Of a stretch of 64,000 bases of DNA, positions 5,396 to 30,930 are shown one piece after another. Both the position numbers and the translations under genes were made by a program. The notes under the pieces were generated by a model that worked only from the letters and a program-made list of their open reading frames with translations, did no database searches and had not been told where the DNA came from. Source of the stretch: Mesotaenium endlicherianum (lineage: Eukaryota); NCBI GenBank assembly GCA_009602735.1, contig WELA01003597.1, positions 1-64,000 of the forward strand. The letters are read 5' to 3'. The first letter of the stretch is position 1. Each line of letters opens with the position of its first letter.

Positions 5396-8300
5396 TCAGT
5401 AAACTCAAACATAAGCAAGGCTAGAAGACAAAGCGTATCAATGGCTTCTCGCCTTGGATTCAGATATCTCTCAGTAAGCAGTACAAGAGAGTTGGCCTCG
5501 TTTCCAAATGCCGAACTTGAGAGCAATACCTAGCATATGAACATGGAATAACTTTATGGTTTAACAGCAAGTGCGATGGCACCGTCTACCCAGGAGTTAA
5601 CCACGTTGGCAGGACCTCGGCTATCCAAATCCACAACCATCTCCCATGATCTCGAATCGCCATCCACCTTAACGGTGTCATCTGGCCACTCATCTAGCAT
5701 ACCACATTTAGATGCATAGCTAGGCAGTTCGCTGCTGCCGGGTAAGACAGCCAGGTGACTGTCAAAGAATGTGTCAGTAAACTCAAACATAAGCAAGGCT
5801 AGAAGACAAAGCGTATCAATGGCTTCTCGCCTTGGATTCAGATATCTCTCAGTAAGCAGTACAAGAGAGTTGGCCTTGTTTCCAAATGCCGAACTTGAGA
5901 GCAATACCTAGCATATGAACATGGAATAAGTTTATGGTTTAACAGCAAGTGCGATGGCACCGTCTACCCAGGAGTTAACCACGTTGGCAGGACCTCGGCT
6001 ATCCAAATCCACAACCATCTCCCATGATCTCGAATCGCCATCCACCTTAACGGTGTCATCTGGCCACTCATCTAGCATACCACATTTAGATGCATAGCTA
6101 GGCAGTTCGCTGCTGCCGGGTAAGACAGCCAGGTGACTGTCAAAGAATGTGTCAGTAAACTCAAACATAAGCAAGGCTAGAAGACAAAGCGTATCAATGG
6201 CTTCTCGCCTTGGATTCAGATATCTCTCAGTAAGCAGTACAAGAGAGTTGGCCTTGTTTCCAAATGCCGAACTTGAGAGCAATACCTAGCATATGAACAT
6301 GGAATAAGTTTATGGTTTAACAGCAAGTGCGATGGCACCGTCTACCCAGGAGTTAACCACGTTGGCAGGACCTCGGCTATCCAAATCCACAACCATCTCC
6401 CATGATCTCGAATCGCCATCCACCTTAACGGTGTCATCTGGCCACTCATCTAGCATACCACATTTAGATGCATAGCTAGGCAGTTCGCTGCTGCCGGGTA
6501 AGACAGCCAGGTGACTGTCAAAGAATGTGTCAGTAAACTCAAACATAAGCAAGGCTAGAAGACAAAGCGTATCAATGGCTTCTCGCCTTGGATTCAGATA
6601 TCTCTCAGTAAGCAGTACAAGAGAGTTGGCCTTGTTTCCAAATGCCGAACTTGAGAGCAATACCTAGCATATGAACATGGAATAAGTTTATGGTTTAACA
6701 GCAAGTGCGATGGCACCGTCTACCCAGGAGTTAACCACGTTGGCAGGACCTCGGCTATCCAAATCCACAACCATCTCCCATGATCTCGAATCGCCATCCA
6801 CCTTAACGGTGTCATCTGGCCACTCATCTAGCATACCACATTTAGATGCATAGCTAGGCAGTTCGCTGCTGCCGGGTAAGACAGCCAGGTGACTGTCAAA
6901 GAATGTGTCAGTAAACTCAAACATAAGCAAGGCTAGAAGACAAAGCGTATCAATGGCTTCTCGCCTTGGATTCAGATATCTCTCAGTAAGCAGTACAAGA
7001 GAGTTGGCCTTGTTTCCAAATGCCGAACTTGAGAGCAATACCTAGCATATGAACATGGAATAAGTTTATGGTTTAACAGCAAGTGCGATGGCACCGTCTA
7101 CCCAGGAGTTAACCACGTTGGCAGGACCTCGGCTATCCAAATCCACAACCATCTCCCATGATCTCGAATCGCCATCCACCTTAACGGTGTCATCTGGCCA
7201 CTCATCTAGCATACCACATTTAGATGCATAGCTAGGCAGTTCGCTGCTGCCGGGTAAGACAGCCAGGTGACTGTCAAAGAATGTGTCAGTAAACTCAAAC
7301 ATAAGCAAGGCTAGAAGACAAAGCGTATCAATGGCTTCTCGCCTTGGATTCAGATATCTCTCAGTAAGCAGTACAAGAGAGTTGGCCTTGTTTCCAAATG
7401 CCGAACTTGAGAGCAATACCTAGCATATGAACATGGAATAAGTTTATGGTTTAACAGCAAGTGCGATGGCACCGTCTACCCAGGAGTTAACCACGTTGGC
7501 AGGACCTCGGCTATCCAAATCCACAACCATCTCCCATGATCTCGAATCGCCATCCACCTTAACGGTGTCATCTGGCCACTCATCTAGCATACCACATTTA
7601 GATGCATAGCTAGGCAGTTCGCTGCTGCCGGGTAAGACAGCCAGGTGACTGTCAAAGAATGTGTCAGTAAACTCAAACATAAGCAAGGCTAGAAGACAAA
7701 GCGTATCAATGGCTTCTCGCCTTGGATTCAGATATCTCTCAGTAAGCAGTACAAGAGAGTTGGCCTTGTTTCCAAATGCCGAACTTGAGAGCAATACCTA
7801 GCATATGAACATGGAATAAGTTTATGGTTTAACAGCAAGTGCGATGGCACCGTCTACCCAGGAGTTAACCACGTTGGCAGGACCTCGGCTATCCAAATCC
7901 ACAACCATCTCCCATGATCTCGAATCGCCATCCACCTTAACGGTGTCATCTGGCCACTCATCTAGCATACCACATTTAGATGCATAGCTAGGCAGTTCGC
8001 TGCTGCCGGGTAAGACAGCCAGGTGACTGTCAAAGAATGTGTCAGTAAACTCAAACATAAGCAAGGCTAGAAGACAAAGCGTATCAATGGCTTCTCGCCT
8101 TGGATTCAGATATCTCTCAGTAAGCAGTACAAGAGAGTTGGCCTTGTTTCCAAATGCCGAACTTGAGAGCAATACCTAGCATATGAACATGGAATAAGTT
8201 TATGGTTTAACAGCAAGTGCGATGGCACCGTCTACCCAGGAGTTAACCACGTTGGCAGGACCTCGGCTATCCAAATCCACAACCATCTCCCATGATCTCG

Positions 8301-8522
8301 AATCGCCATCCACCTTAACGGTGTCATCTGGCCACTCATCTAGCATACCACATTTAGATGCATAGCTAGGCAGTTCGCTGCTGCCGGGTAAGACAGCCAG
8401 GTGACTGTCAAAGAATGTGTCAGTAAACTCAAACATAAGCAAGGCTAGAAGACAAAGCGTATCAATGGCTTCTCGCCTTGGATTCAGATATCTCTCAGTA
8501 AGCAGTACAAGAGAGTTGGCCA
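5396..8522. repeat. Tandem array of 378-bp units (~8.3 copies) amplified from an internal segment of the family X LTR
   Basis: Identical ORFs recur every 378 bp (5554, 5932 ... 7822; the 8200 copy runs into the N). The unit matches LTR X sequence at ~247-661. The array ends at a single N (8523). Confidence 0.95.
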
Positions 8523-8523: not shown

Positions 8524-8616
8524 TCCACACTCAATGCTTCCCATGTTCAACCAATTCCTCATTCAACACTTAGCAGATATTTTCAAAAGCTTATCTCATC
8601 CTCAGCTTTCCTTACA
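8524..8616 (-). repeat. Repeat B2 (truncated by assembly gap)
   Basis: Matches ~10039-10131. Minus strand begins TGTAAGG. Confidence 0.85.
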
Positions 8617-9836
8617 TAGGACAAAAGTGTCTTACTTTCGCACAGGCTTCCACCCAAATTGAGCATTTACAGAATGAACAAGTTTTGTGGTTTGCAGAAA
8701 TCACGTCTAAGCAGCTTAACAGGCAATGCCAGATTCAGAGAAAATCGCCCTTCAAGGCTTTCGCTTAACTCCCACAAGTCACAGCTTACAAAACTCTGAA
8801 ACTGCACATCTATGTTGGCCTGGTCTGAGCTCTTCACTCAACATCGCGCCTTAACAGCTCTTCACTGCTCGGCTGGGCTCACTCAGTTCTTCACTGAGAG
8901 CTTTACTTGTTGAGGCTACTCTTGCTATCAGCAATTTGACAATTGAGATTTCTGAGAACTTAGAAACTAACACAGCACTCGCCATTTTAAGTGTCTCTCG
9001 CACGCTTGTGGCGTTTGACCCAAATCTGTGCTAATCTCCTAACAGATTCTATTTTGCAGCTCTCTACTTTCTACCAGCGAGACCCTCTCTTGGGAACTCC
9101 TGAGGTCTAACGTGTCTATGACACACTTAAGAAGAATTCTTCGAGCATCGGCAGAAGCGTGGCGTCTCGATTCTTCAACGGCCTTGGGAACTCCTTCTTC
9201 TTCGTGCTCCCTCTGCTTCTTCAACTTCCTTTGACAACAATGCAAGCCAGAATAAAGCAGCTTCAGGCAGGACTCGTGCCTTTCACAGGCACCACACACT
9301 ATCCTCTCTCGAGAATGCCAGTGCTTAGTCACAGTGCTGAACTTGCATGCCGTCCTTAGCAGCTCTTCCACCATTTAGGAGTTGTCATTCTGCATGCGTG
9401 CATGCATTGGGATTGTCGCGCGTGACTGCTTAGCCTTTCAGTTGATAATCATGCCTATTTGGCTGGCTGGCAGCGTTAAGAACGAGCGCTCAAGCCGTGA
9501 CTGGCCACATGCGGGTCTTGGCCGAGGTGGCACACAACGCCTCTGCAACATCCCTGCTGTACTAGGTTTAGATAGCCAATTGATCAGTACCTTTTCGTGC
9601 ACTTGCTGGTTCCCTACTCTTAGCCTTTCAACTGACTACTCTATTCAAACCCCCATCCATTCTTGGGCATGGGTTTGGCGTGTTGTGACCACTTTGACAG
9701 TGATAACAACTTTGAAATGACCGCTGACTGAGATCTCTCGGTCCTTTGGTCGGTTAGTCAACGCTGACTTCCCGTACCTGGGCAACCGTGGCTTGCGTTG
9801 CGCGTGCGACACCGTTAAGTTATAGCAGTCGCGGCA
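8617..9836 (-). repeat. Repeat A2 (1220 bp)
   Basis: Colinear with 19271-20490, with scattered substitutions. Minus start TGCCGCGAC. Confidence 0.93.
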
Positions 9837-9838
9837 GC

Positions 9839-10131
9839 TGTCGTGCCTAACAATGTCGGACCCCTGGCACGTGCGTGGTTTCTCAGCACGTGTCCCTTCG
9901 ACCTGGTTGACGTATCGGTGCGTCGCTGCACGTGGGAATCGACCGAGTTGATCATCCCTTGTACGTGTGTCGGCGGCAAACTGGTTGGGGTTTCACTCAT
10001 TCCTGGTCTTCCTGCACTTGCATCACACGGTGGGGCATCCCACACTCAATGCTTCCCATGTTCAACCAGTTCCTCATTCAACACTTCGCAGAAATTATCA
10101 AAAACTTATCTTATCCTCAGCTTCCCTTACA
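9839..10131 (-). repeat. Repeat B1 (293 bp), directly after the PPT
   Basis: Minus strand reads PPT GAAAGGGAGGGG (10143-10132), then TGTAAGGG...GGCACGACA. Homologous to 49992-50335. Confidence 0.88.
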
Positions 10132-11588
10132 CCCCTCCCTTTCAGCTGAGGCGTCCCTGCCTTTCCGCTGAAAGCCTCTATCTCCTGGCCTTGCGGCTGG
10201 GGGTTTTAGGAAGGCAGTCAGGACATTCCCACCGTCCTGCCATAATCTCTTCTTTGCCAATGCAGAAGGTGTCCAACGGGCACTACACTTATCGCAAGTT
10301 ACCATTGCTTCTTGATCATCCAGCACTTTGCAGCTGGCACAAGGTGTGGCTGGCACCAATTCCTCGGGCACAGTCTTGATCGTAGGATCAATATTAGGCA
10401 AGTGGCACAGCGAGCAATTCTGCACATGATCTCTTATGGTTTTCCCATCAGAACCTTCCAGTTCCAGCACACCATTGTCGAACGCATGTTTCACGCGTAA
10501 GATTACTGCACCTGAACTGGTGTCAATGGTGGTCTTGGTCTGGCGCTTGCGGTAGGCGAAGTCTCCTTCCTGAATTTGCGTCATTTGCAGGCGGTAGCTC
10601 TCGTCTCGCGTCCTGGCGTAACGCTGTGTGTCTCTTTTTTGTGCAATTTTCAGATTGTCCAGGGCAGCAGGCATCATGTGCTCAAATAACGCCTTGCGGC
10701 GTATCATGACTTTTAGCAGTTCCTCAGGGTTGTTCAGGTCGTTCACCTGTCCGATCTCCTGCTTGATGCTGCTGGGCACAACTGGACTTCTGCCAAACAG
10801 AATTTGATAAGGCGAGTAATTCGCCAAAGCAGCTTGCTTGCTAAATTTGTAACCCATAATTAGCCATGGTAGGGCCAGATCCCAATCACGCTTGTCATGC
10901 TCAAGGCAAAATTTGCGCAAAGCAGACTTAATGGTTTGCACCATCCGTTTTGCTAGACCATCAGCTTGTGGGTGGTCTCTGGACGTAGTGCGATGGTCAA
11001 TGAAGCATTTATCTAAGACTTTCTGAAAACAACCTTGGAACTCAGATCCCTGGTCTGTCAGCACTTCTGCTGGAGCTCCATGACGTACAATCACACCGTC
11101 GAGAAGCGCTTCCGCGGTCCCCAAGCTTTCCTTAGCAGGTAGAGATACAACCTCTATCCATTTAGAAAAATGCACTTAGAAAAATGCTCAATCATGATCA
11201 TAATGTACTTGTTACTTCGCTTGGACAGCGATAGCTCTCCTGCGAGATCACAGCTCTAGCGGTATCCTAGGCCCATGATTGGCAGAGGTTGCAGGTGTGG
11301 GTGTTGCTGTGTGAAACCAGCCTTGACGCGATCACAACTTTGGCAGGCCTTGATCACATCCTCACACTGCTGCTTCATGCCCCTCCACCAGCAAGACAGC
11401 TCCAAAAGATTGTACGTCTTCTTGACACCATAGTGTCCAATATTCTCGTGCATTTCCTGCACCAGAGCTCGCCTTTTGGTGGGTTCTGGCACCAACTTCT
11501 CTTGACCAGTTTTTTCAATCTTGAAGAGGTTATTGCGTTTCCAGCAAAACAGTTTAGCTTGATGGCTCACCTGGTCCTTTTTGTTCAC
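10117..11588 (-). pseudogene. DDE integrase with HHCC zinc finger and C-terminal PHD finger (element 1)
   Basis: Motifs MHENIGHYG..CQSC, VLTDQGSEF and HPQADGLAKRMVQTIK. PHD start CASC..MVTCDKC is frameshifted. Confidence 0.9.
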
Positions 11589-11594
11589 CGATGA

Positions 11595-13219
11595 TCATTC
11601 TATGTGGACTCCTGTCTTCAGCCAATACATAGTGGCTTGATCTTTCCAGATCTCCGGACTGAACGGGGGTAGAGGCTCAGCTTCTCCTGACGCTACCATT
11701 CTAGCCATTTTGGCCAGGCAGGCTGCCAATTCTGCTGGGTTGCTCGGATCTTCGTCTTCCCGAGCTCTCGTTCTGTCGTCTGCGGATGGGTCCGGGTTCC
11801 TGCTGAGTCCATCGGCGTTGTTGTTGAGTATACCTGCTCGATGTATCACTGTCATCTGGTACTCCTGGAGCTTAAGAGCCCAGCAAGCCAATATACCAGT
11901 GAGGTCTCCATTCTTCATCAGCCAAAGTAACGGCGAGGGATCTGTGATTAGCATGAAGGGTCTTTTCAATAGATACTCTCTGAAATGTGCGACAACCCAA
12001 ACCACTGCCAGCAGCTCTCCTTCGTAGGACGAGTAATTGCTCTCCGCTTGGTTGTTAGAGCGCGAGGCATAGGCAATGACGAACTCCTCTCTAGGACTTG
12101 CGACCTGAGTGAGTACTGCGCCGATTCCCACACGACTCCAGTCAGTGTGTAGACTGAACGGCTTGGAGTAGTCGAGCGTTCGCAAAATTGGGGCTGTTAC
12201 CAGTCGCTCCTTGAGCTTGTTCATGGCCTTTTTCTGCGCCTCCGTCCACACAAAAGGTACGTCCTTTTTCAGGAGTTCTGTCGAGGGTTCAGCAATTTTG
12301 CTATAGTCCTTCACAAATTTACGATAGTATCCGCTTAGTCCTAACAGGGCTTTCAGCTTACACACATTCGCTGGTGCAAGTATCTTGTAGATGGCTTCAG
12401 TCTCTACAGCCTGAGGAGACATAGCATTGTTCCCAATCTCATGTCCTAAGTAAGGCACGTGTGCCTCAAAGAATCTGCACTTTCCAGGGTGCAACGTCAT
12501 CCGGAATTTCCCCAGGCGCTGGAACACTTGTTCCAAGTGCTCGAGGTGCTCTTCTATGGACTTGCTGAATACCACCACGTCATCAATGTAGGATTTTGCA
12601 AAATCCAGCCCCTCCAGCACTTTGTCCAAAGTCCTCTGAAAGATGGCTGGGGCATTTTTTAGCCCAAACGGCATTACCGTCCATTGCCAAAGTTCCCTTT
12701 GGGCCCAGAAAGCGGTCTTACCTTGATCTTTTATTTTCACAGGGATTTGAAGCCTTGGCGTAGATCGATGATGCTAAACACCTTCCCGGTGGTAGCAATC
12801 GCAAAGATCCGCTCTGGTGTAGGCATCACATAGCTGTCAGGTTCCGTGTGAAGATTCAGTTGTCTGTAGTCTTCACACATATAGGTGGCGGTATAATTGC
12901 CAGCCTCGTCCTTCTTGGCAATTACTACTGTAGGAGCTCCATGTACTGAGGTTGATTTCTCAATCATGCCGAGCTTGTGCAGCTCTTGGCAAGCTTTCTC
13001 CACACAGTCTCATTCGGTCTGGCTGAGCTTATGCGGCCCGAGTCTGACTGGGTTATCAGTAGTTAGTGTGATCTCACACACACTGGCAGTGGTTCTACCA
13101 ATCTCCTCCTTGGTAAAAGCAAACACCTTGCGGTGCTTCTTCAGCAGCCTTTCTACTTGTGCTCTCTGTTGGGCTGAGACCATTTTTCCAATGGTGAAGA
13201 CCTCAGCTTCCAGCTGCAT
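11595..13219 (-). pseudogene. Reverse transcriptase and RNase H (element 1)
   Basis: Motifs MCEDYRQLN, IDLRQGF, MPFGLKNAPA, YIDDV, HTDWS, YASRS, NYSSYEGELLAV and ADGLSR. Split by frameshifts. Confidence 0.95.
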
Positions 13220-15399
13220 TTCCCCAACACAGGCATCCAGTACTTGCTACTCTTTGGGTTCAGGTGGGGGCTTTCCACCCTCATCCTGACCTTCAGGCTT
13301 TTCTGCCTGATTGTTAGGAGGTGGAGTGGCAGGCTTCGTAGCTTGCTCCTCCGCTGATTTCGGCTCGGCGGCCTACTTCCTAGGCTTTTTACCTTTTCCG
13401 ATGGATTGTCGCTTCTCATGTTGAGTGGGGTATGTCGGACGTCTCCGGATGGGCTGCCTCAAGAACCTTTCTTCATCTGCAGCAGTCCAACTCGTCCCTG
13501 TTCCTCCCTCTTCACGTGGCGGGGTCGAATTTGGCAACGGCCACCCTGCTGGATCTGCTCTGGGGTCAATTGTCCAACCCCATTCGCGCTCAATAGTGGT
13601 AATGCGCGCATCGGTTGTGCCAAACTTCTCTTTGGCTGGTGGCGTAACCGTCCATGCTTGTGTCAAAGTCTGCTGTCTTTGAATCGCAGCTAGTTGTGCG
13701 TATACAGCATTTTCTGCTGTCAAGCGGCTTATGGTGCTTCTCAGCTCTACCAGTTCCCTTTCAGAAACTGCTGATGTCCTAGGGACTGAACTGTCCCTTT
13801 CCCACGTTCCAGTGGATGACGGAGACACCATGGGAATGTGAATTCCTAGTGCCATGGCTTTGCGAATCAAGCCATCTTCTCCTTCTCTCTGCAGAATCTC
13901 TAGGATAGGTTGCGGAGGTGGAGCCATGGTTCCTTTCGGAACCCCTTCTCTCTGAGTTGTTCCCCTATTTTTAAGACAACGCATCAACATCCGCTTGAAA
14001 GGTGCACTCCCTTCCCGGGCCACCTTTCTTAGTCTGCTTGCGCGACCGCGAGGATTCCCTTGTGTTGGTTCCACCATAGCGGTATAAGTAGCCACTTCCT
14101 GCGGTTGTTGTAGCTGATGGGAGGTAGCTCCTGGTGCTGGTAAATTGGCGGTTGGAGTGTTGGATGTAGGCGACCTCAGATCGTTGTATAGATCTGATAG
14201 GCTGGGCCCCTCCACTATCAAGTGATCGGTCACTTAGTCATTTGTCCTGAGCTCTTGTAGCTCCAACAGATCCAGTTCCGGAGTAGGAAAACGTAGAATT
14301 TCTGCCTGAATCTCCTTTTCATTGGTGACTGACGACAGGTCAAACCCTGGAAGGTCTGGCATTTATGCGTCATCTTCAACTGGCGTCTCCACTCCAGGTG
14401 GTGGCGACTCTTCATCATTATCTGTGTTGAGGTTTGCCAAGTTGACAATGGCTGATTGCAGCGTGCTTGATGCCTTAGCCACTTCCTTTTCCTTGTGCTG
14501 TCGAGCGTCTGCTTCCAGCAACTGCACAATGATCTGCCTCGTAATGGATTCAGTTGTTTGACTAGCTGAACCCTGCTGTTGCCCCTTAGCCTGTGGCTCT
14601 GGGCTTGTCAAGGCAGGTGTTGTGGACAATTTCTTGTCCAACTCCTCCTGGCGTTCTTCAAATATCACTTCGAGGCATATGCTCTTTGCAGACCCTCCAG
14701 AATCTCCTACTTCTGACTACTCTCTTCAGCCCATTCACCAATATTGCACTGGCGTTCTCGCCCTAATGCTTGGTTTAGAAAAGGTCCAATTTCTTCAGGC
14801 GTTGGCTCAAGAGTCTTCTTCTCAGATTCTTCTGACATGTCTTGTAACGGCGCTTGCTCTGGTGAAGACGACAGACGTTGTTGGTTAGCTTCCCAGCTTT
14901 CCTGCCAATAGTCTCCGCGCCCAGCCGCTCTCGGCCTGAGGTTGGTATCATATCCTGATCTGGCATCTTCCGGAGTCTCCTCACGTCTTGATGTCGTGGC
15001 TCCGTGAGGTGAGCTCCCAAATATCTGGCTGTGAGTGGCGTTTCTTGCAGATGATGGGGTGTCCTACCTATTGTCTTATGCAGTTGGCATAGGCGTTGCC
15101 TGCTCAGGCGCCTGGTCCCCCATGGGTGTATCCTCTCTTTTCAACGGTGCTTGTAATTCATTGGTCCGATTATTAATCCGGTCCAACAGATCCTGGCATC
15201 TTCTAAATTCAGCCACCCTAGCTTGCCTGAATGCTCTGTCTCTGGCAGGTTCCGCTGCGTCTCTTTGCACACTATATTCTTCTTGTTGCTGGTGTGCCGT
15301 CCAGATAGCTCTTTGATCAGATGTTAGCATCACATTGACTCCAATTGTTAGTGGTCTTGTCCTTGGCATAGGCTTGTCAGTGAAAGTCAGCTGCTGCCA

Positions 15400-16370
15400 T
15401 GTCATAATTGTTTCCACCAACCAAGTCATAGAGTGCTGCCCAATCATGTTGCCAAAAATCTTTGCAGCTTCATCTGACCCTACAGCATCGACTATATGCC
15501 GAGCTATGTTGTCGAGTATCCCAAGGCATTTGGCCTTCTCTACCGCATTGGGCTCTTTCCAAACGGCGTTTCTTTCATGTATGTCTTTGACCATTCCTGG
15601 TCTACCTTCTATGAAGGCTCGGGATCTTGGATATGCTGTGAAGGTTGGCGGTACTACCCTTGGCTGACCTGGTTTGTTGATGACACACTGTGGATAGGAA
15701 TCCGTCCTAGCCACTGGTCTGGTATGCACCGCCAGTGCCTTTTTCACTGTCAATGCCATTGGTGATCAACGTGTAATGTCCTCCATCTCTCTCAGAACCT
15801 CAATAGACATGCCATTGGTCCAAAATATCCTGGCCCTATGGGATAATCCTCCATGCTTGGCGTCGTTGATTAGAACATGGTGGCCCAAAGTGGAGTCGAA
15901 AATCAGCCATGGCTCTCCCGGGTTCATCTGCTTGTAATCCATTCCTGGATGCACATTCTCAATCACGAACACTGGTGGGTAGTAGTGCTGTCGTTCTCGC
16001 AGCATACTGATGATTTTACCATCCATCCCCAGTGTTGTGCTCGTGGATCACTGAATCCCCTCCGATTTCCAGCTTGAGAAAACGGTTGATAAGGAAATCC
16101 AGCAAAGATCCAGTCAATCCTGTAGCCATACAGGTGTTCAGGCTTCACATCAATAATGTTGCCTCCAGCGATGCGCTCGACATTGCTATATGCGGGCGCC
16201 ATCCCTTTATAATAATGCATTTGCCGAATCTGACTCATAACTTCTTGGAATGCTAGAAAAGCGTGGTCGTCATTGTCCACATACAGGACTTTGGCCACCT
16301 GTATTCCTCGCTGGATCAATACTTTGGTCCCAGACCCAAGTCCGGCGAATAATTCTAACACCACTACTCC
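15400..16370 (-). pseudogene. C5 DNA cytosine methyltransferase domain within the pol region (element 1)
   Basis: Motif I LELFAGLG, IV GFPYQPFSQAG..GFSDPR (catalytic Cys replaced by Tyr), VI IENV, VIII HRARIFWTN, IX-like EPNAVEKAKCLG and X FGN, in canonical order across three frames. Confidence 0.92.
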
Positions 16371-16624
16371 CCTTTTGCGAAAAGGATCTTCCATCCTGAC
16401 AATGCCTTGCGGCAGCGGCTCAACTCCAGGCATCAGATTTGCAATGGAGGTATACTGGGTAAGAGACTGGCAGCAACTCTTGCGGGCCGCGGACCCTATT
16501 ACTCACGGTTTCCAACTGCTTCATGATTTGGGGTTGCCATACCAAGGGTGTTGGCATGTTGATGCTCGTATAGCCTTCCTCTTCTTGCTTCATGATGTTG
16601 TCGCAGGCTTCTGGGTACCTGTCG

Positions 16625-17060
16625 TTAATGCAGCAGCCTAGCAGTGTAGTTTGCTTCTCCTGTGCAAACCATCTTCACAGGAAATTCTCCTGCCGGCTGC
16701 CAATCTGTTGACTGGTAAGTCACCCTCTGCTTCCGCAGATCAATGACCATACCCAAGGGAATCAGTGCTTCTGTTCCCAAGAGAACATCATGGTTCTCTG
16801 CCTCCGTCACTGTGCATTCCATGAGTAGTGACGCCTCTTCAGGTTTTGAATTTACTGTGATTTTCACAAGCTTGCGAGTAATCCCTCAAAACTTTGATAC
16901 TTGTCCTGAGGCAGTTCTCAACTAGAAAGGACTCTCTTTCAGGTCCCTTGCCGTCAATCCTAGAGCTTTCACAGCTCAATTTCCCAAAATGACTGGCTGT
17001 GCGCCTGTATTCAACAGAATGTTGGGAGCTGCCCAGTTGTTGAAGGTTAATGCACCATCC
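16625..17060 (-). pseudogene. Aspartic protease remnant (element 1)
   Basis: ILLNTGAQPV (degenerate DTGA) and HDVLLG. Confidence 0.75.
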
Positions 17061-17124
17061 CTATTTTGCACTCTTGCGATATTAAAATTGGTGGGCAATG
17101 AGGCGCTATTTGCACCTTCCTCAG

Positions 17125-19117
17125 CTATATCCAGCTGATGTCCGGCTTCTTCAACCGTGAATGGATAAGTAATATGCAAATCAGCGAGAGAAAGCAAAGG
17201 AGCATGCTGGATTCGGTGTTCCACAGGGCCTTCAGCTTCTCCAGCGAAAAACTAAATGTCTTACGCGTCCCAGGCCTGGCTTGTCGTAGCTGCGAGATCT
17301 CATTTTCATCCAGAGTGATGCGAAAAGTCTGAGGAAGCTTCCCAGCATTCCTTGGCACCAGACGGTTGTGATCTGCTTGCTTGGCAGCTGTTGCGTCCAC
17401 AGCCTTTTCAAGCATCAGCTTCTCGCCTTTGCAGACGGTCTTTTCTGCAATATCTGCATCATAGTAGACATTGGAAGCGTTTAGTTTTGCAAACTGAGCT
17501 TTCAACTCAGCTATTTCTGCACTCATAGCTTCATACTTCTGGTTACCCTTGCGGTTACCAGAGGCACCCTTTACTTTCTTTTTTTTCTTGTCTGCCTCTT
17601 TTGTGGCAGCATTTGCCCAAGGCGGTTTTAAATTTGGGTTCTTAGACCAGCACTCATCTTCTGAGTGTCCCTTCTTGCTGCAATGTGCACATATCTATGT
17701 CTTGCTAGTAGATGATTGCTTAGCATCTGGGTACGGACAATCCCTCTTTTGATGTCCTGATTTCCCGCAATTCAAACAGCTCTCTGCTGTTTCAGCAGTG
17801 TTGGCATGCTCAGCAAACTTATGGAAAGACCCACTCTTTTTCTTAAACTGAAAATTAGAGCTGTTGGCCTTAGGCGGAGAGGATTCCTCCCTCCTCTCAA
17901 GAGCCATAAGCTTCCTGGAAGCCTCTTTGTACCACGCTTTACCTTCTCTGACAGTGCGTGCTATTTCAGCTGCCTCGTCAATGTCCCAGTCAATCCCGTG
18001 CTTTGCGGGACAGATGTGGCCTGACTTCACGATCTGTTTCCTTGCCCAAGCACAATAGAAACTTGTCAGCCACTATTCTGGACTCGTATATTTTTGCCTT
18101 TTTGGCGAGGTCTACCAATCTGGATTTAACCTTCATAACTGTCTCGTTCTTCTGACGGACAAAATGCACATAACGGTGCACCTTAAGACTGCGATCCTTT
18201 GAAAATCGTGCTTCAAGCAACTTAAAGAAACGCCGTAGACAATGCTTGGGGTCCAGCTGGTCATCTCCAACCTCCATATCCTTTCGACAGCTAGCCAAGG
18301 CTTGCACATGGCTTGCCTCTGTCGTGGCGCTATCGCCTCGCTGATCATGGAGAGGTGCAGCTCTGCGTGTTACTCGTTCCTGAGCATTAGCAATCTTTTC
18401 AGACAATTCTGCACACACTTTTCGCAACTCTGCGACAAAGCCGGTATCATCGCTCTGAGTAGCAGCCCTTCGCTGACCCTCAGTGACTTCCCCCATGGCC
18501 TCTGTTAATTCTTGTGTTAGTGCAGCTAGGTCTATGCTCTCAACAGGTGCAGTTGTCACTGCTCTTCCTGAAGATAGAGCAGACATTCGGGCTTTTGCAG
18601 CCTCTTTCTGGATTTTCAAATCCCTTGCCCTTTTCTGTTCTGCAAATGCCCATTCCTGGATGAGATTTTCATCCTTCCGGAATTGGCGATATAGCAGCAG
18701 GGCATCCTTGTCCAAGTACTGAACCACGCCTATGAATGCGACAGATTGCGTATAAGAAGAATCCTTCCGAATCTTCTCAAAGAATTCTGCCCAATAGATC
18801 TCATCAAACTCTTCAAAAGTGAGACAATTTCCGCTGGTTCGTCCGCTAAAACACTTTGCAGACAGCTTGAACTTAGGATTTTCATCCATCACCGGCCATT
18901 TTGAACGGTGACCAGGACTCAGTGACTCTTCCCCACACGTCTTGCTCTTTGCCCAAATCAGGTGCAAAAGCTCATGTGCTATCCAAGTTCTTCCGCTTGC
19001 GGAGATATGGCGGGACTTGTCTCTCAACGGTTGCTCACTCCACCGGTCGTCAGTATGCTCAGACGTCTCACTTCCTTGTGGACTCTGGCTAAAATCAAAA
19101 CCTTCTACAGGCTCCAT
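17125..19117 (-). pseudogene. gag with two CCHC zinc knuckles (element 1)
   Basis: CLNCGKSGHQKRDC (~17740-17780) and CAHCSKKGHSEDEC (~17650-17695). The block FVRQKNET resembles FFRRKNET in element 2 gag. Confidence 0.82.
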
Positions 19118-19270
19118 AGAGTGGTAGTGTCATCCACTCCTCAACCGCATATACAGTTGAATTTCTCCAGGTCCCCTTCCAGGTTGAACACCGGCAGCCT
19201 TCACAGGCCTCAATCCCCAACTGACTTGAGAATTCTTGTTCACCTGAACCAATCAACAAGTTCTCAGAAG

Positions 19271-20490
19271 TAGGACAAAAGTGTCATACTTTCGCACAGG
19301 CTTCCGCCCAAGTTGAGGATTTACAGAATGAACAAGTTTTGTGGTTTGCAGAAATCACGTCTAAGCAGCTTAACAGGCAAGGCCAGATTCAGAGAAAATC
19401 GCCCTTCAAGGCTTTCGCTTAACTCCCACAAGTCACAGCTTACAAAACTCTGAACTGCACATCTATGTTGGCCTGGTCTGAGCTCTTCACTCAACATCGC
19501 GCCTTAACAGCTCTTCACTGCTCGGCTGGGCTCACTCAGTTCTTCACTGAGAGCTTTACTTGTTAAGGCTACTCTCGCTATCAGCAATTCGACAATTGAG
19601 ATTTCTGAGAACTTGGAAACTAACACGGCACTCACCATTTTAAGTGTCTCTCGCACGCTTGTGGCGTTTGACCCAAATCTGTGCAAATCTCCTAACCGAT
19701 TCTATTTTGCAGCTCTCTACTTTCTACCAGCGAGACCTTCTCTTGGGAACTCCTGAGGTCTAACGTTTCTATGATACACTTAGGAAGAAATCTTCCAGCG
19801 TCGGCAGAAGCGTGGCGTCTCGATTCTTCAATGGACTTGGGAACTCCTTCTTCTTCGTGCTCCCTCTGCTTCTTCAACTTCCTTTGACAATGATGCGAGC
19901 CAAAATAAAGCAGCTTCAGGCAGGACTCGTGCCTTTCACAGGCAGCACACATTATCCTCTCTCGAGAATGCCAGTGCTTAGTCACAGTGCTGAACTTGCA
20001 TGCCGTCCTTAGCAGCTCTTCCACCGTTTAGGAGTTGTCATTCAGCATGCATGCGTGCATTGGGATTGTCGCGCGTGACTGCTTAGCCTTTCAGCTGACA
20101 ATCATGCCTATGTGGCTGGCTGGCAGCGTTAAGAATGAGCGCTCAAGCCGTGACTGGCCACATGCGGGTCTTGGCCGAGGTGGCACACAAAGCCTCTGCA
20201 ACATCATTGCTGTACTTGGCTTAGATAGCCAATTGATCAGTACCTTTCCGAGCATTTGCTGGTTCCCTACTCTTAGCCTTTTGGCAGACTACTCTGCTCA
20301 AATCCCCATCCATCCCTGGGCGTGGGTTTGGCGTGTCGTGACCACTTTGACAGTGATAACGACTTTGAAATGACCGCTGACTGAGATCTCTCGGTCCTTT
20401 GGTCGGTTAGTCAACGCTAACTTCCCGTACCTGGGCGGCCGTGGCTTGCGCTGCGCGTGCCGCACCGTAAAGTGGATAGCAGTCGCGACA
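19271..20490 (-). repeat. Repeat A1 (5' terminus of element 1)
   Basis: Minus start TGTCGCGAC. Abuts family X LTR sequence at 20491. Confidence 0.93.
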
Positions 20491-20646: not shown

Positions 20647-22100
20647 TATGGTAAGGACTAAGTCTCAAACTAGCAACTCTCGTGAAATGGAGGGTGAGGA
20701 CAACGATAACATTGAGGAAGGGCAGGACGAAAGCCGCGTTTTTTGACCCTGTACCTACTTAGAAACGCTGCACGATGTAGGAGCCAGAGAAGTTGCAGAG
20801 GAGGCAGCAGCTCTTGCTGCGGTAGCAATTCAGCTTGCTGAGGATGAGCGATTAGCGAAGGAGGTAGAAGAGGCAAAAAACAAGAGGGCCCCTGACGAAA
20901 GGACGGTGGAAGAGCAGATGGCAGAGAGGGCCAATCTCCGAAACCAACCTCCTGCTGTGCCTACTATTATACCTCTTTAGATTTGCAGACAATTGAATTC
21001 AACAGGCACAGTCGAAGCGGCAGCAATTGGGAATGCCGAAGCTGCTACCATTCGAGCTAATGTTGCTGCTGCGTCGTTTGCTGGGCTACCACCTCAGATT
21101 GTCAATCTGGGAGCATTATTTGTGCAAATGCAATCGCAAATGGCGAGCATGTGTGAGTCCCAACATGAGGACAAAAGGATCATGATGGCATTGCTGCGTG
21201 ACAGAGACCAACTCGATCTTCAAACCACTAGTGGTGGTGGCAGAGGACGAGTAAGCTTAAGCCAAAACCTCCTCAGGACTATGACACTGAGGAAAACAAA
21301 AAGTACTACTTGATCATGTTTCTTCTTGATGTTGAGCAGTGGCTGGAGAAATACCCATAATTGCAAGACTAACTTAAAGAATTATTCACACTGGTGCTCT
21401 ATTGAAAGGCAGTGCAGCAGACTGGTGGCTGTATTGGAAAGGAGAGCGTAAGGCTTAACAACTCGGTGACCCTACTTGGGTAGAGTTTGTCGAGAAGCTG
21501 CATGAGAAGTAGGATCTTATCAATCAGCAGGAGAAAGCTATCTATGCGATGATCTGCTTGACACTGAAGCAGACCACTTCAGTTGCTGAATTTGCCCAGA
21601 AGTTCCAGGAGAACATGATGAAGCAGCTAGAACTGCCTGAGCGGTGTAGGATAGCATACTTCAGGTATGGCTTGAAGTCCGAGGTCTCAGGTGATTTTGC
21701 TAAAAAGGAATATGAGAAAGTGGCTGACTTTATCCAGGATGCTGATGTCTAGGATCAGCAGGAGTTCAATCACAAGCGCCAAAGTAATGCTTTGGTGTCT
21801 AAGATTGTAAAAAAGCCACATGATTTTCTGCAATGCGATTGAAGGAGATCAAACTGAGGATGATCAAAGTGACGAGTATGAGTATAATGCTATACAGTCT
21901 AGAGGGAGAGGTGGATACTCTTGAGATGGCTATGGAAGAGGTGGTGGTAGGACTAAGCCAAGACCAGCCTCAGTAAACTCCATTTGCTTCCATTGCCAGG
22001 AGTTGGGCCACTACAGGGAGCATTGTTCTAGAAAGCACCTTCCAAAGGTCGAGAGAAAGGATCAGCCTTTAAAAGACAGCAACAATCAAGTCTACTGACT
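20647..22100 (+). pseudogene. Family X gag (retrotrans_gag region and zinc knuckle remnant)
   Basis: LKQTTSVAEFAQKF..RIAYFRYGLK and a knuckle CFHCQELGHYREHC near 21985-22026. Homologous to 4030-5191 on the minus strand. Confidence 0.8.
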
Positions 22101-22450
22101 GTGAGGATGCTAGAGATAGTGAGTCGCCACCAGCTGCCCTCGTAGCAGGTGTTATGGGTTCTGCTGAACTGGATTCACTATGCATGCGTGACAAACAAAT
22201 AAAGGAGACCATCAGCAATAAAGATCTTCAGAGAGTGCACACTCTGGATGATCTTATTTAACCTGATGTCCAATATTTCTTTGCTAAGTCAAGACAACAA
22301 TGTTGTGCATTATGAGGTCGGATGCGTCTGATTTATATAAGCAACACACAAGTGGGCAAGCAAGACTTGCTATGGTGAAAGCAAAAATGCATGCGGTCTT
22401 AGGGCCAAAAAGAAGGTTAGCTGTCAAATGTTTCAATTCCCCCCCAGCTT

Positions 22451-23870
22451 TCAGCATCCAGCTGATGAGCTGATAATACTATCGCTAGCCAACTTTGCAC
22501 AGTCACTACAGAACCAGTCGCCAACGGGAACGCGCTCCAGTGGGGAGTCGAGGCAGCCAATGTGGAAACCAAGATTGCAGTTGTCGCAGAGCAGCATCTT
22601 GGCCTCCTTGCCAGGGCTATGGCAGATCTGGCACGCCCTGTCCTTGGGCGGGCGCGCGTCGCGGAGACGAACTTGCACATCAAGGTAAGGAAGGTGGCAT
22701 GGTTCACAGTTCTTCATGTGGTCCTTGTGAAGACGACCATCTGCGGCTTCCAACTCCAGTACTCCTGACGCCAAGGCACGCTCGACGCGCACGATGATCG
22801 GCAAGCTGCTGGTGTCGAGGGTGTTCTTCGTCTGGCGTCGCAGATACACGAAGTCACCTGCGAAAAACTGCAACACCCGAGGACGATAGGCTCCTCCACA
22901 AGCCATGGCATACTTCAGCGTGTCACGGTGCTAAGCGATACTGAGGTTGTCCATGGCCATGGGCATCAGGCGCTGGAACAGTTGTGCACGCTGCCCGACA
23001 AGAGCACTCCATGTGTCGAGACTATCCAAGTCCAGGACACTCTCAGCCACGGTCCTGGCTGCGGCTGGCAGGATCGGCTGGCATCCATAAAGGAGAAAGT
23101 AGGGAGAATACGAGGTCAAGGAGGCCTGGCGATTGAACTTGTATCCCATAGCAAGCCACGGGAGTGCGTCGTCCCAGTGGGTGCTGTTGTGGGTCAGGCA
23201 ATACTTGCCCAGCCCCAGCTTGACGGTCTGCACCATGCGCTCTGCAAGGTCGTCAACCTGGGGGTGATTGCGGGAGGTGGTGCGGTGCTCAATTATGGAG
23301 CGCTCTAGCAGCTTCTGAAAGCTGCTCTGGAACTCCTTGCCCTAGTCAATCAGTACCTCAGCGCAGCCGCCAAAACGGCTCAGGACCTGATCAAGGAACG
23401 CCTGCGCGATTCCCTCACTGGCCTTATTGGGCAAGGGCACGAGCTCGATCCACAAGTGCTCAATCATCACCAAGACGTAGAGGTTGCCTCGACGGGACTT
23501 GGACAACTCCCCAGCCAAGTCCAATGACCACCTGTAGAACAGCCCCTGAATGGGCAGGGGGTTGAGGGCAACAGTGCATGCTGTGAAGCTCGAGCGCACG
23601 CGGTCGCAGAGAGTGCAGCTGCTGACGACGTCGGCCACGACCTTAGCCATGCCGTGCCACCAGTACTCGAACTGCAGTAGGCTGAGAGTGCCCTTGATAC
23701 CAAAGTGTCCAAGGGCCGGGCCTCATGAACGGTGCGCACCAGCTGGCTGCGTATAGCAGGCTCAGGGACCACCGAGAAGGAGCCGTCGGCCATCACACGC
23801 CTCAGCCGACCCTCCATGAAGACGAAATCTCGGGTGCGCTTGAGGACGCGGTCACGCTCCCTCGCGTCCA
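22451..23870 (-). pseudogene. DDE integrase with C-terminal C4HC3 PHD finger (element 2)
   Basis: CTLCDR, WSLDLAG, AEVLID, MVQTVK. PHD CQIC..MLLCDNCNLGFHIGCLDSPLERVPVGDWFCSDC. A G-rich PPT follows at ~22438-22446. Confidence 0.93.
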
Positions 23871-23873
23871 TGT

Positions 23874-25508
23874 CTAGCGCCAGCTCCTTAGTGGCGACGT
23901 ACTGCAGCAGCGCGGCAACGTCCCACACGTCCTCAGGCCCGCAATACCAACTGTCTTGCTCGCTGCTGCCGCCCACGCCAGACGCCTCGTGTTGACCACC
24001 ACCAGGTCGGGGTCGATGAGCCCCGCGGGCCTCGAATCGCCGTCCATCGTGAAGGCCAAGAAGGCTGCCGCGTGCCAGGCCACTGGCTCGTCCTCGTGAT
24101 GCCGGACCACGGTCAGATCCCTGGAGGAAGGCAGCAGATTGCGGCTGACGCCGTCGGCGTCCATGGTGGTCGAGCCGGGGCGGTGGTGCATGTCAAACGT
24201 GTACTCCTGCAGAATGAGTGCCCACCGCGCGTACTTGCCTGTAAGGCGCTCCGACGTGATGAGCCACTTAAGCGGCTGATGGTCGATGACGAGACAGAAT
24301 TGGGTGCCGTAGAGGTAGTGCCTAAAGTGCACGATAGCCCAGACCGCTGCCAGACACTCCCCCTCATAAGAGCCATAGTTGGCCTCGGCGCGATTGTTGC
24401 TGCGACTGTCGTACGCCACCACGTGCTTGCAAACGTTGTGCTCCTGCACCAGCACTGCTCCCAGCCTTGCCTGCACCCAGTCGGTGTAGAGGATAAAGGG
24501 CTTAGTGTGGTCAGGCCACCGTAGCACTAGAGTGCTCACCAACAGCTCCTTGAGCTTATCTAACGTTGCCTACTGCTCTGTCCCCCATACGTAGGCAAAC
24601 CCCTTTCGCAGCAAATCGTTGAGTGGCTTAGCGAGCTCGCTAAAGCCAGGCACAAAGCGGCAGTAGTAGTTGGCGATCCCAAGGAAGGCCCTCAGCTGTA
24701 AGATGTCGATAGGCGGCGGGATGCCTGTGATGGCCAAAATCTTGGCCAGCTGCGGTGCCAATCCGCTGGAGGAGAGGAGATGCCCGAGGTACTCCACCTC
24801 TCGGGTCCCAAAGGTGCACTTCCCTGGATGGCACTTGAGCCCAGCGGCCTCCAAGCGGTCCACGATGGCGGTAATGTGCGCCATGTGCTCCTCGAACGTC
24901 TCATTTAAGACAAGCACGTCATCAATGTAGCACCGGGCAAAGGATAGCCCTGCCAGCTCCTTATCCATGACCCGCTGGTAAGTAGCTGGAGAGTTCTTCA
25001 GCCCGAAGGGCATCACCCTCCACTCGTAGAGGCGCTGTGCCCCCCAGAACGTTGTCTTGTGCTGGTCCTTCTCCGTAATAGGTATCTGGTTGAAGCCTTG
25101 CCTCAAGTCCAGCATCAAAAACCATGTGCACGTGCCAATGTCATCGAAGATCTTGTCAGGGGTAGGCAGAGGATATCTGTTCTGCTCGGTAACCTCGTTG
25201 AGCTTATGATAGTCATCGCACATCCTCTTCTCATACCAGTTGCCTGAGGCATCCTTCTTGGCCGGCATGACCGTGGGGGCCGCGTAGGTAGAGGAGGACT
25301 CCCGAATGAGCTGGTTGTCCTCCAGCTTGCCTGTCTGCGTGCTGATCAAGACATCCGCAAAGTGACTGTAGCGGTATCGCTTTTGGAAGATGGGTACGTC
25401 GGACGTGAGGCGGAGCCTCATGGGGTCGCCAGTGTAGCGCCCCAAGTCATGCATGCCGCTGGCAAAGCAGGCACTGCGCCGGGCATCAAGCATCTCCATT
25501 AGCTGCAC
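23874..25508 (-). pseudogene. Reverse transcriptase and RNase H (element 2)
   Basis: Motifs LDLRQGF, MPFGLKNSPA, YIDDV, YTDW, NYGSYEGECLA and ADGVSR. Confidence 0.95.
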
Positions 25509-25766
25509 TGCCTGCTTCGTGGTAAGGGTCCCCCCCAGCTTCCATGTAGGGACTGCTAGAGGTGGTGCTTGCCCTGCACCTGTCGCCTCTTGTGCTACTG
25601 TTGCAAAGCTCTGCCCCCCTGCTGGCGCCGCCTGTCTGCTGGCAGAGAGCGGCTGCCCTGCACCTGCTCCTGCTGGAACCTATCCTGCGGCTGCCAGCTG
25701 ACCTGTAGGAGCTGCCTGCTGGCATGCAGGAGGAAAAAGAAGTGGGGAGCGATGCGACCCCCTAGC

Positions 25767-26350
25767 GTCGTTTGGCGTCGCAGGTACACGAAGTCACCTG
25801 CGGAAAACTGCAACACCCGAGGACGATAGGCTCCTTCACGTGTCATGGCGTACCTCAGCGTGTCAAGATGCTGAGTGATATTGAGGTTGTCCATGGCCAT
25901 GGGCATCAAGCGCTGGACTAGCTGTGCACGCTGCCCGATAAGAGCCCTCCATGTGTCGGGACTATCGAAGTCCAGAACACTCTCAGCGACGGTCCTGGCT
26001 GCGGCTGGCAGGATCGGCTGGCGTCCATGAAGGAGAAAGTAGGGAGAATGCGAGGCCAAGGGGGCCTGGCGACTGAACCTGTATCCTATCGCCAACCACG
26101 GGAGTGCGTTGTCCCAATGGGTGCTGCTGTGGATCAGGCAGTACTTGCGTAGCCCCACCTTGACGGTCTGCACCATGCGCTCTGCAAGGCCGTTAGCCAG
26201 GGGGTGATCGCGGGAGGTGGTGCGGTGGTCAATCATGGAGCGCTCTAGCAGCTTCTGGAAGCTGCCCTGGAACTCCTTCTCCTGGTGGGTCAGCACCTCA
26301 GCGCAGCCGTCAAGACGGTTAAGGATCTGATCCAGGATCGCCTGAGTGAT
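25767..26350 (-). repeat. Ectopic duplicate of the integrase core (diverged copy of ~22828-23410)
   Basis: Direct nucleotide colinearity. AEVLT..HPLANGLAERMVQTVK..GDFVYLRRQT is in frame with the MTase. Confidence 0.9.
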
Positions 26351-27225
26351 GCCATCCACCCGGGTCAAATGCGGCGGGAAGCCCATGGCGCGCTCCATTT
26401 CTATGACGCGCGGCCGCTTGTAGAGGCCAGAGGAAAGGTCAATGAGCATGCCGCGAACCGCGCTGATGTAGACGGCGCTGTCGTAGTGGCTGACGAATGT
26501 TGGCAGGGCGCGCGTGACATCACCGAGCACCTCACACTGGGCTTGCGATGGATGGGGCAAAGCTGTAACGAGCTGGGCCAGCCGTGTGACGTCGAGGATG
26601 GAGTCGACGTTGCGGGCGTGGCGTGGGTGCGCGGCGGCGAGGGCCTCCAGCGTGCCTGGCATGGCTAGGTTGGTGAAGTAGGCGCGCACGCGGTGGGTGA
26701 AGGACCCAACCTGCGCGGCGTTGATGACGGCCTCGCGTCTGAGGTAGCTGCTGCAGAGCTCAAAGTTGGCGCGAACATTGGCGCGCTCGTCGTTGCGCAC
26801 CGCCACATTCTCCAAGACCCACGCAAAGGAGTGAGGTGGCTGGCGCGCCTCAACCACTGTGAGGACGCAAAGAAGGTGCCAGAAGAGCGCCGTGCGAGGG
26901 TCACTGAGGGCACCACCGCGGCCTGCGATGGAGAAACCCGGGCACTCCCAGCCAGCAATGACGAGATCCACGGGGCCGAGGCGAGTCACGTGCTCGTCGG
27001 TGATGTCGCGGACGTCCAATGGCTAGTCGGTCTGCGCGTAGCGAAAAGCGCAAGTGAGAAATAGGTCGGGGAAGCGCTTGTGACAGAGGGCCATCTGGCG
27101 TCGGGCAACTTGCTGCGCCTTAGGTTCAGGGTCGACGTAGACGTAACGTTGGACGGGAATGCCAGCCTACAAGGTAGCCAGCAACCCAGTGGCGATGTTG
27201 GCAAACAGCTCCACCAGGACGATGC
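26350..27225 (-). pseudogene. C5 DNA cytosine methyltransferase domain, DNMT3-like motifs (element 2)
   Basis: LVELFANIA (degenerate motif I), DVRDITDEHV..LGPVDLVIAGWECPGFS (III/IV), LENV (VI), HRVRAYFTNL (VIII), EMERAMGFP (IX). Motif X is replaced by the integrase duplicate. Confidence 0.92.
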
Positions 27226-28237
27226 CGCCAGACGGCTCATCCAGCTGGTCCGTGTAGATTGGCGTTGGCGGTGGGCAAAGGCCTATAGCAAGATTGCTTG
27301 GCTCCGCCGTTGGCGGGTACGTACGGGCCACGCTGTACTGGTGAGGGGCCATGCGGAGTGCAGCGACTGCACGGTTGGCGTAGTCGCGCGTAAGAAGCAA
27401 AAGAGGTCCAGCCAGTGGCTGAGGCTGGTCGACGCGCGCGTGAGCCTGGTACTGTCGCCACCTGTCCTGAGCGTCCTGCAGGATGTGAAAGCGTAGAGGT
27501 GTCAAGCGGGACTGGGCCATGCGCACGCAGGTGAGCTGCCACCTGCGCCTAGCCTTGCGGTCCTGCGCATGAGAGGCTGCGTACGCGAGCTGGTCCATCA
27601 CAAGGCGCTGTGGCAGGTACGGGTGTGGGTCGTAGAAGGCCTGCTGGCGGTGGTGGAACGGGAGGTCCACTGGGTTGGCGCTGCCGGCGGGCTTCGTGTC
27701 GTATATGAAGTGCCGGACGCGCACTGGCTAGCAAGGCGCCAGCTGCACCTGGGCATGGGGTTGCGGGTGGAGCGGCAGCTGATCGTTTGGACGCCGGTAG
27801 CGGCGCGCCAAGTCGTCGACGGCTGCAGATCGGCGGCCAGGCCTAGAGTCGCATGCGCGGCTGCTGGTGTGGGCCACCTTTGAGGGAGGCAAGCTGCCAG
27901 GCCCGTCTCTGGCAAAGTGACTGCGAGGGAGCGCTGGCCGTCGATCGTAGAGCGCGTGGGTGGCGTACGTGGTGGACTGCGGGGCATCCTCACGACCGTC
28001 CACCTCGCAGTACGGCGGGGTGGCTGCTCGATCACGGCTGTCGCGGTAGGGTGGAGTGGCGGCTTGATCTTGGGTATTGCGGTAAGGCGGCGTGAGAGAC
28101 CGAACACGTCTGGGCGGGGGCGTGAGATTGCGCTCGCTGCGCAGACTGCGCCTGAGCTGCGGCCAGGTGACAGCTCCCAGCCTGCCGCGTAGTCCGCGTT
28201 CCGGCTCTGGACGGATGACTGAGCACACAACGGGTAC

Positions 28238-28731
28238 TGTAGTGAAACAGATAGATTAAGTACTTATTAAAATAGAATACTTTATCTATTCAAGACAAGG
28301 ATCTTTGAACACAAGTGGTAGCTTCTTGAAAGAGAGATGGCTTCTTGAAAGTTAATGTATTTCTGGAATTTGGCACGTACAAGAGTGATCTGGAATGTCT
28401 TTCTCTGTTCTAGCTCTTGTTTATATACTTGTTACATGAGTAATTTCTAGAAAGGTGTATGTTGATGTGTTGGCACCCGACACATCCCAAAACTTGCCAC
28501 CTCTTTCTAGAATAATGTACACGTGTCCTTTTGACCTAAAAATGGCACATTTGACTTTTGCCACATGGAGTTCTTCTAGGTCCTTCCTCTAACTTCAAAA
28601 ATAAGGTTCAAAGGACATAAACCAAGTCATTAGAGTACCTATTCACACTTGAATCCACACAATACTACTCCATATATATTTGAAAATATTAAAATATATG
28701 CAACTAATATATTATAACTCAAATTACTACA
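28238..28731 (-). mobile_element. Solo LTR (family Y) inserted in element 2
   Basis: TGTAGT...ACTACA with 5-bp TSD GGTAC (28233-28237 and 28732-28736). Reverse-complement homologue of 40353-40855. Strand is relative to that copy. Confidence 0.92.
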
Positions 28732-30559: not shown

Positions 30560-30930
30560 GATGTCCAGCGGCAGTGAGGCCTTGTGCGTACCACCTGTGC
30601 GCCAGTCGGGCCGATAGTGTGCCCGCTCCGTCCAGTTATCCACCGCGGCTTCAATGGGGAAGAGCACGTCCTGCCCCAAGAGGACGTCGAAGGTGTCAGA
30701 GCGCGTCACGAGCGCGTGACGATGTATCGTCGTCTCATCCTCGGTCCCGGGCCAAAAGTTGAAGACGAGCGCCAGCCAAGTGCGCCCCATCACGGACTCG
30801 GATGTACCAGTCGCAGTGTTAATCCGCATGGGCAAATCCTCCAGATCAGCTGAGGAGAGACCCAGCTGCCAGAGATAGCTGTGACTGATCAGAACTGGCA
30901 GGGCGCCGGTGTCAAACATAATGCGCTGAG
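30560..30930 (-). pseudogene. Aspartic protease (element 2)
   Basis: MFDTGALPVLIS ... FDVLLGQDVL. Confidence 0.85.

Follow-up and report, generated by a model that had tools for sequence, protein, structure and literature searches.

A decayed Gypsy retrotransposon of Mesotaenium endlicherianum with split terminal repeats and its probable insertion through a palindrome inside the long terminal repeat

How can a retrotransposon with a DDE integrase come to carry the split terminal repeats that otherwise mark tyrosine-recombinase elements? The question is raised by an element on the minus strand of contig WELA01003597.1 of Mesotaenium endlicherianum (assembly GCA_009602735.1), of which positions 1 to 64,000 were analysed (the window). 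As judged from its sequence, it is a decayed Gypsy retrotransposon, in which two repeat parts, A and B, are arranged as A1-internal-polypurine tract (PPT)-B1-GC-A2-B2 according to self-comparison of the window and direct reading (Table 1). In long terminal repeat (LTR) elements and retroviruses, it is the ends of a linear complementary DNA (cDNA) that become inserted, and to our knowledge integration through a circle junction is known solely as a side route. Judged from the copies analysed here, the inserted ends sit at a conserved palindrome inside the LTR and not at the predicted ends of the cDNA. Insertion probably proceeds through cutting of this internal palindrome by the integrase, the leftover ends being joined by the end-joining machinery of the host.

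The split layout had been proposed in an earlier note on this DNA, and all its coordinates hold by both approaches. A1 and A2 align with 1154 matches, 45 transitions and 20 transversions (94.7% identity), while B1 and B2 are identical at 86 of 93 positions (92.5%); given this similar divergence, consisting mostly of transitions, the two pairs look equally old. The possibility that B2 is an assembly overlap, named in the same note as a result that would refute its reading, is not supported, since the 806-bp duplication flanking the single N at 29409 (28603-29408 and 29410-30215; 28603-30215 in all), which likely is a true overlap of the assembly, is 99.9% identical, compared with 92.5% for B1 and B2. 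The left boundary of the element was placed at 20490/20491 by two uninterrupted window copies of the host repeat that it interrupts, serving as empty-site analogues. At the opposite side, the DNA left of the N at 8523 differs from the expected flank, being an oppositely oriented host repeat. Up to that N, positions 5396-8521 are occupied by about eight tandem copies of 378 bp (99.6-100% identical), reflecting either recent amplification or an assembly artefact. Both ends can be observed in a solo A+B of a sister subfamily within the window, whose left end is TGTCG as in A1 and whose right end is the end of B, with G, not A, as the last base. The palindrome at B1/A2 consists of the right and left ends of the element joined via two bases; the suggestion that CA-GC-TG at this point represents such a junction agrees with both the palindrome and the ends of the solo copy.

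Junctions in relatives, taken from the best 80 of 348 confirmed metagenome matches, provide the most detailed picture. In a related family (42-47% alike in reverse transcriptase, RT), A-internal-B-A-B was found in 10 loci by self-comparison and in more by mapping A and B. All 17 left ends of this family start at A, and none has B upstream. Two complete colinear LTRs, the criterion for Ty3/Gypsy, are thus found neither there nor in the window copy, where A1 stands without B; B+A at both ends with flanking target duplications, which the earlier note had named as the layout that would count against its reading, is likewise absent among these left ends. The right ends comprise 16 of B-A-B, 13 of B alone and 2 stopping in or after A by rearrangement. 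The spacer of the B-A joint is 2 nt in 18 of 18 cases, its variants GC, GT, AC and AT being those expected from cytosine deamination. The A-B joint is precise in only 6 of 16 cases, with losses, gains or large deletions in the other 10 (Fisher p 6e-05 versus B-A), among them a B2 shortened to 29 nt, an A2 that lost ~217 nt and one joint retaining ~40 nt of primer-site-side sequence. Such variability is what end-joining of two natural ends would leave. Inserted ends of TG..CA with a 4-bp duplication are displayed by the solo A+B (last base differing) and by the related family, in which 11 copies with both ends show exact 4-bp duplications in six cases, one mismatch in two and none in three (chance of an exact match 0.007). 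The duplicated targets are unrelated (CCAA, TGAC, ATTA, TTTA, CCAC and TTTT). These junctions support the proposal that the replicative LTR is B+A, with inserted ends at a site inside it. In L053, A2 is cut at 209. The sole copy ending after A2 (L023) was rejected, being joined to an inverted internal piece and not to flank, as were the repeats in L058, L060, L062 and L048, which belong to an unrelated common repeat.

The palindrome extends beyond this family. The form GACA-GC-TGTC recurs in five families only 38-55% alike in protein. When up to one mismatch is allowed, the core GACAGCTGTC is present in the 1.3 kb following the integrase in 20 of 53 loci, versus 1.07 expected from shuffles, although the rows are not independent. 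The five families carrying the core are the window family, the related family, L001/L003/L147/L151, L008 and L148. The bases after the PPT differ by family (TGTAAG, ATACAT, CACTTG, ATCTGC and TAATTG), and the length of B ranges from ~57 to 293 nt. Among the 33 loci with no core match are more decayed junctions and B-only copies, which by definition have only half the palindrome. In L148, the palindrome takes a perfect 16-bp form, and B measures ~57 nt. L147-L151 are eukaryotic retrotransposon contigs of the window's clade inside prokaryotic genome bins, for which contamination is likely.

Table 1. Positions of the element's parts and of the solo copy in the window.
Feature	Position	Strand	Basis or remark
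Putative TATA-like box, TTAAAA	19638-19643	minus	~25 nt before predicted transcript start
A1, left terminal repeat part, 1220 bp	20490-19271	minus	begins TGTCG at inserted left end; starts TGTCGCGAC
Predicted RNA 5' end and self-primer	19603-19615	minus	exact reverse complement of primer site
Primer-binding site, self-priming type	19257-19270	minus	directly after A1
Broken gag region with CCHC zinc knuckle	17125-19129	minus	PF00098, E 5.6e-05; several stop-bounded frames
Probable decayed aspartic protease region	16625-17251	minus	position and motif in translation; no Pfam match
C5 cytosine DNA methyltransferase domain, broken	15373-16502	minus	PF00145, E 7.6e-09; tblastn with P0031 and P0085
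RT and RNase H, with stops and frameshifts	11598-13195	minus	PF00078, PF17917, PF17919
Integrase (H2C2, DDE core, C-terminal PHD-like finger), broken	10237-11594	minus	PF17921, PF00665; alignment to P0031
PPT, GAAAGGGAGGGG	10143-10132	minus	direct reading
B1, 293 bp, start of replicative LTR	10131-9839	minus	TGTAAG...GGCACGACA; self-comparison and direct reading
Palindrome CGACA-GC-TG(T/C)CG at B1/A2, putative internal attachment site	9832-9843	none	same core in relatives
GC spacer between B1 and A2	9838-9837	minus	
A2, 1220 bp	9836-8617	minus	94.7% to A1
B2, first 93 bp only	8616-8524	minus	92.5% to B1; remainder lost in gap (N at 8523)
Solo A+B, sister subfamily	48760-50335	plus	CCAA each side; 89% to A1, 86% to B1

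Signals around A1 point to the start of the cycle. The statement of the earlier note that no canonical primer-binding site follows A1 is refined by the finding of a primer site of the self-priming kind directly after A1. The complement between self-primer and primer site measures 13 nt in A1 and 14 nt in the solo A+B, and 13 nt was reached by none of 5000 shuffles. In the related family (10 of 14 loci analysed), 6 of the 10 loci have TATAAAA 25-30 nt upstream of the stretch that is reverse-complementary to the family's own, different primer site. Complementarity of primer and primer site with a TATA box 25-30 nt upstream is present in two families with different letters. A self-priming signature of this kind is described for Tf1/Sushi and Tcn1 (PMC6317226). 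RNA reads of X17, X18, X20 and X23 (27-131 each) were mostly partial and less than 95% alike, and no transcript boundaries were readable from them.

The proposed sequence of events consists of five steps. During the first, the RNA would start ~345 nt before the end of A1, and its 5' end would fold onto the site after A1 and prime reverse transcription. During the second, priming at the PPT and two strand transfers, as in standard LTR biology, would produce a linear B+A-internal-B+A cDNA, whose ends are predicted to be without the conserved TG/CA that the internal palindrome possesses. During the third, the integrase would assemble on CA-GC-TG of the upstream LTR and nick after each CA, giving two ends with 2-nt 5' overhangs that would resemble processed retroviral ends. 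The loss of GC and the duplication of 4 bp would both be explained by such nicks. The fourth step, insertion, would yield the product observed, with TGTC...GACA ends, a lost GC spacer and a 4-bp target duplication. During the fifth, the natural ends (the end of A and the start of B) would be joined imprecisely by host end-joining, either before insertion, as a 2-LTR circle, or just after it, resulting in A-internal-B-A-B. The B-A copy at the 3' side would restore a full LTR, so that this form would be copyable again, while A-internal-B and solo A+B would come from repeat recombination, 1-LTR circles or cuts at both sites. The upstream site seems to be preferred, as no A-B-A-internal-B occurs among the 17 left ends; possible causes are that this LTR is double-stranded first, lies near a DNA end, or is marked by the methylase of the element. 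A likeness to the circle junctions of IS3/IS911 may also be recognized. The chemistry has a retroviral precedent, since HIV-1 integrase is able to cleave a palindromic LTR-LTR junction internally (PMC1905944).

Several points weigh against this proposal. All its steps are read from inserted copies, and the right end of the window copy is lost in the gap together with its target duplication. The copy statistics come from the related family in short-read metagenome assemblies and not from the genome of the window; loci with the same flank were merged before counting, the A-B classes were read by eye, and some copies lack an A1 of their own. As many as 13 of 29 right ends carry B only, 3 of 11 copies have no matching duplication, and in 4 of the 10 loci the best complement found is other than the TATA-linked one, at 7-9 nt elsewhere. 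The apparent upstream bias (A-B-A at 0 of 17 left ends) is a further weak point, the causes named above being candidates. Moreover, L057 (3546-13217, A-internal-B-A-B) and L059 (536-9668, A-internal-B) share one insertion site, both with CCAA duplications, implying that part of the variation arose after insertion or was made by assembly; A-internal-B forms could be created by assembly collapse. The same pair indicates that short forms need not derive from 1-LTR circles.

Among the alternatives, the one that survives best is a template route like that of PAT or Ngaro elements, in which RNA would run through A2 into B2, reverse transcription itself would build A-internal-B-A-B, the A-B joint would be inherited and the integrase would act on ordinary ends. 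The layout equals that of PAT-like, Ngaro and VIPER elements (PMC6681497), and the six precise A-B joints are consistent with inheritance. The route is nevertheless considered unlikely: B+A LTRs are to be expected from a canonical PPT preceding B1 together with a primer site following A1, and A-B varies from copy to copy in 10 of 16 cases, with B2 down to 29 nt, whereas B-A never varies. Less credible still is the opening of a free 2-LTR circle at either palindrome at random. The A-B joint does resemble a circle junction with retained primer-side sequence, and retroviral 2-LTR circles can reopen and integrate (PMC4372172). Random opening, however, predicts equal numbers of A-B-A-internal-B, which was found at 0 of 17 left ends (p 4e-05 if a share of 13/29 is expected, and 0.008 for a share of 0.25), although such copies might be erased by A x A recombination or by assembly. 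The circle opened inside the LTR that the earlier note envisaged stands in one respect, as A-B behaves as a joint of two free ends; opening at either site at random, the version of that model with no bias, does not match the copies seen. A chance product, namely either the juxtaposition of a solo A+B with an ordinary or truncated element, or an artefact of assembly at the gap, is highly improbable: the element does end in an N gap beside the near-identical 378-bp array, but the repeat pairs are 5-8% diverged, and the layout is shared, target duplications included, by many insertions that arose independently in another family, besides being reported for Klebsormidium. Hardly any credence is given to a tyrosine recombinase acting on the palindrome in trans, with the DDE integrase as passenger, for although split direct repeats otherwise mark tyrosine-recombinase elements (PMC6681497), the 4-bp duplications of unrelated targets, the TG..CA ends and the spacer loss fit DDE chemistry, the element has no recombinase match, and the integrase is kept across the clade.

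Cutting of the internal palindrome by the integrase, with host end-joining, is considered likely. In the coding content, gag, protease, RT, RNase H and integrase follow the Ty3/Gypsy order, the protease by motif and position only. The view that the integrase is of the DDE rve type and that no tyrosine recombinase is visible was confirmed by a Pfam rve match and by the lack of any recombinase match in 38 stop-to-stop frames from both strands, out of 78 frames of at least 60 aa. No chromodomain (PF00385) was matched in the Pfam scan of the element frames. The PHD-like finger is called as PF00628 by Pfam in many close relatives, not on the window copy. The third acidic position of the integrase is Lys in the alignment to P0031, and the catalytic-motif position of the C5 methyltransferase is Tyr instead of Cys in the translation; together with the stops and frameshifts, these altered positions indicate that the window copy is dead. 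Between methylase and RT, ~2.1 kb (13240-15370, minus strand) has no Pfam match, where relatives have a short linker only. In the P0085 subclade the methylase (residues 680-1060) does not precede RT but follows RNase H, ahead of the integrase.

A quick RT-RNase H tree of 141 rows places the window inside an 88-row clade (Shimodaira-Hasegawa-like approximate likelihood ratio test, SH-aLRT, 100), in which the window row is a long branch; the rows are top query matches, a biased sampling with 3 of 120 proteins dropped for short coverage, and include no named Chlamyvir, Tcn1 or REM1 sequences. The clade comprises PHD- and methylase-bearing Gypsy proteins, including those of Klebsormidium, Closterium, Marchantia, Calypogeia and Pleodorina, and the integrase is retained across it. 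This placement makes a green algal or plant host likely. Three chromodomain-bearing rows fall outside. Four Klebsormidium nitens proteins lie within, none of which is labelled as KnitGypsy-Dnmt3 or carries a methylase domain. Contigs of runs X1-X4 (one sample) cover all 30 bins of 8617-19270, with none at the termini among the matches listed; the family is abundant, with a summed contig depth of 7,000-88,000 versus ~45-85 per listed contig, a measure that is not copy number. In the viral collection, a first alignment gave 66 loci, mostly 27-32% alike, and the layout was not found in those analysed; a second alignment gave 2 weak loci.

Other elements were also observed in the window. A second element, rich in GC (21860-33800, minus strand), has the same order of methylase, RT, RNase H, integrase and PHD. 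Its PPT lies at ~22435-22450, and a search for paired terminal repeats found none; the palindrome is represented only by a trace with two mismatches ~15-20 nt past the PPT, in which case B would be very short. Further remnants lie at 715-2900, 35141-36389, 37268-37993 and 43188-44138, their types being a Gypsy integrase with a Tf2-type SH3 domain, two RT pieces and a DDE_Tnp_1_7 transposase. Host-like gene pieces at 51544-53722 and 57374-58030 show a C2 domain and a PHM7 cytosolic domain.

If the mechanism is true, a DDE integrase can be uncoupled from the ends of the cDNA, the convergence of Gypsy on the split repeats of tyrosine-recombinase elements is explained, and a natural site-cleaving integrase becomes available for study. 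LTR finders that require two matching end repeats would miss or misdate the window's clade despite the abundance of the family in its host. A broader conjecture, for and against which we hold the case to be evenly poised, concerns an ancient Gypsy clade found in green algae and early land plants and distinguished by its PHD-integrase and DNA methyltransferase. This clade would have moved its attachment site to mid-LTR, with obligate cutting of the internal palindrome and host end-joining in every cycle, and Gypsy-7a_cRei, as a candidate member, would open the pathway to testing. Gypsy-7a_cRei of Chlamydomonas reinhardtii is PHD-bearing and very active, with 86 new insertions in CC-4532, and has unequal LTRs (PMC9940879).

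The closest known system is KnitGypsy-Dnmt3 of Klebsormidium nitens (de Mendoza et al. 2018, PMC5890265), which shares with the window element a C5 methyltransferase in a Gypsy pol and A-coding-B-A-B repeats. The legend of Fig. 4c in that paper assigns it a DIRS repeat structure, defined as A-coding region-B-A-B, with Gypsy domains. The split layout is accordingly already published, in one legend and with no mechanism. The text searched of PMC5890265, figures excluded, is silent on its junction sequence and primer site as well as on the length of the duplication and the mechanism, and 'circular', 'target site' and 'PHD' have 0 matches in the main text. No later paper using the KnitGypsy name was found, and the mechanism put forward here is not proposed in the literature searched, which did not extend to figures, theses, Repbase reports or subscription journals, the REM1 paper among them. 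The window element adds a member to a lineage hardly described so far and, by the mechanism proposed, would represent a novel form of LTR retrotransposon.

PAT-like, Ngaro and VIPER elements likewise have A1 at the 5' end and B1-A2-B2 at the 3' end, and their solo A2+B2 remnants (SIRE) parallel the solo A+B; they encode a tyrosine recombinase, whereas the window element has a DDE integrase and a PPT, with 4-bp duplications (PMC6681497). Tf1/Sushi and the plant Tcn1 chromoviruses resemble it in self-priming instead of a tRNA primer but possess chromodomains and ordinary LTRs (PMC6317226). Troyka, to which a relation had been suspected, is an LTR element with unusual termini, described in PMC12440569 for animals only and with no mention of split repeats in the part covered; its CG..CG ends and 3-bp duplications contrast with TG..CA and 4 bp, which argues against that relation. 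Finally, the integrases of HIV-1 and foamy virus cleave the internal palindrome of two abutting ends (PMC1905944, PMC4372172, PMC1180852). In retroviruses this 2-LTR cleavage is a side route at the true junction of cDNA ends that restores a normal provirus, whereas in the elements analysed here the palindrome belongs permanently to the LTR and marks all inserted ends observed.

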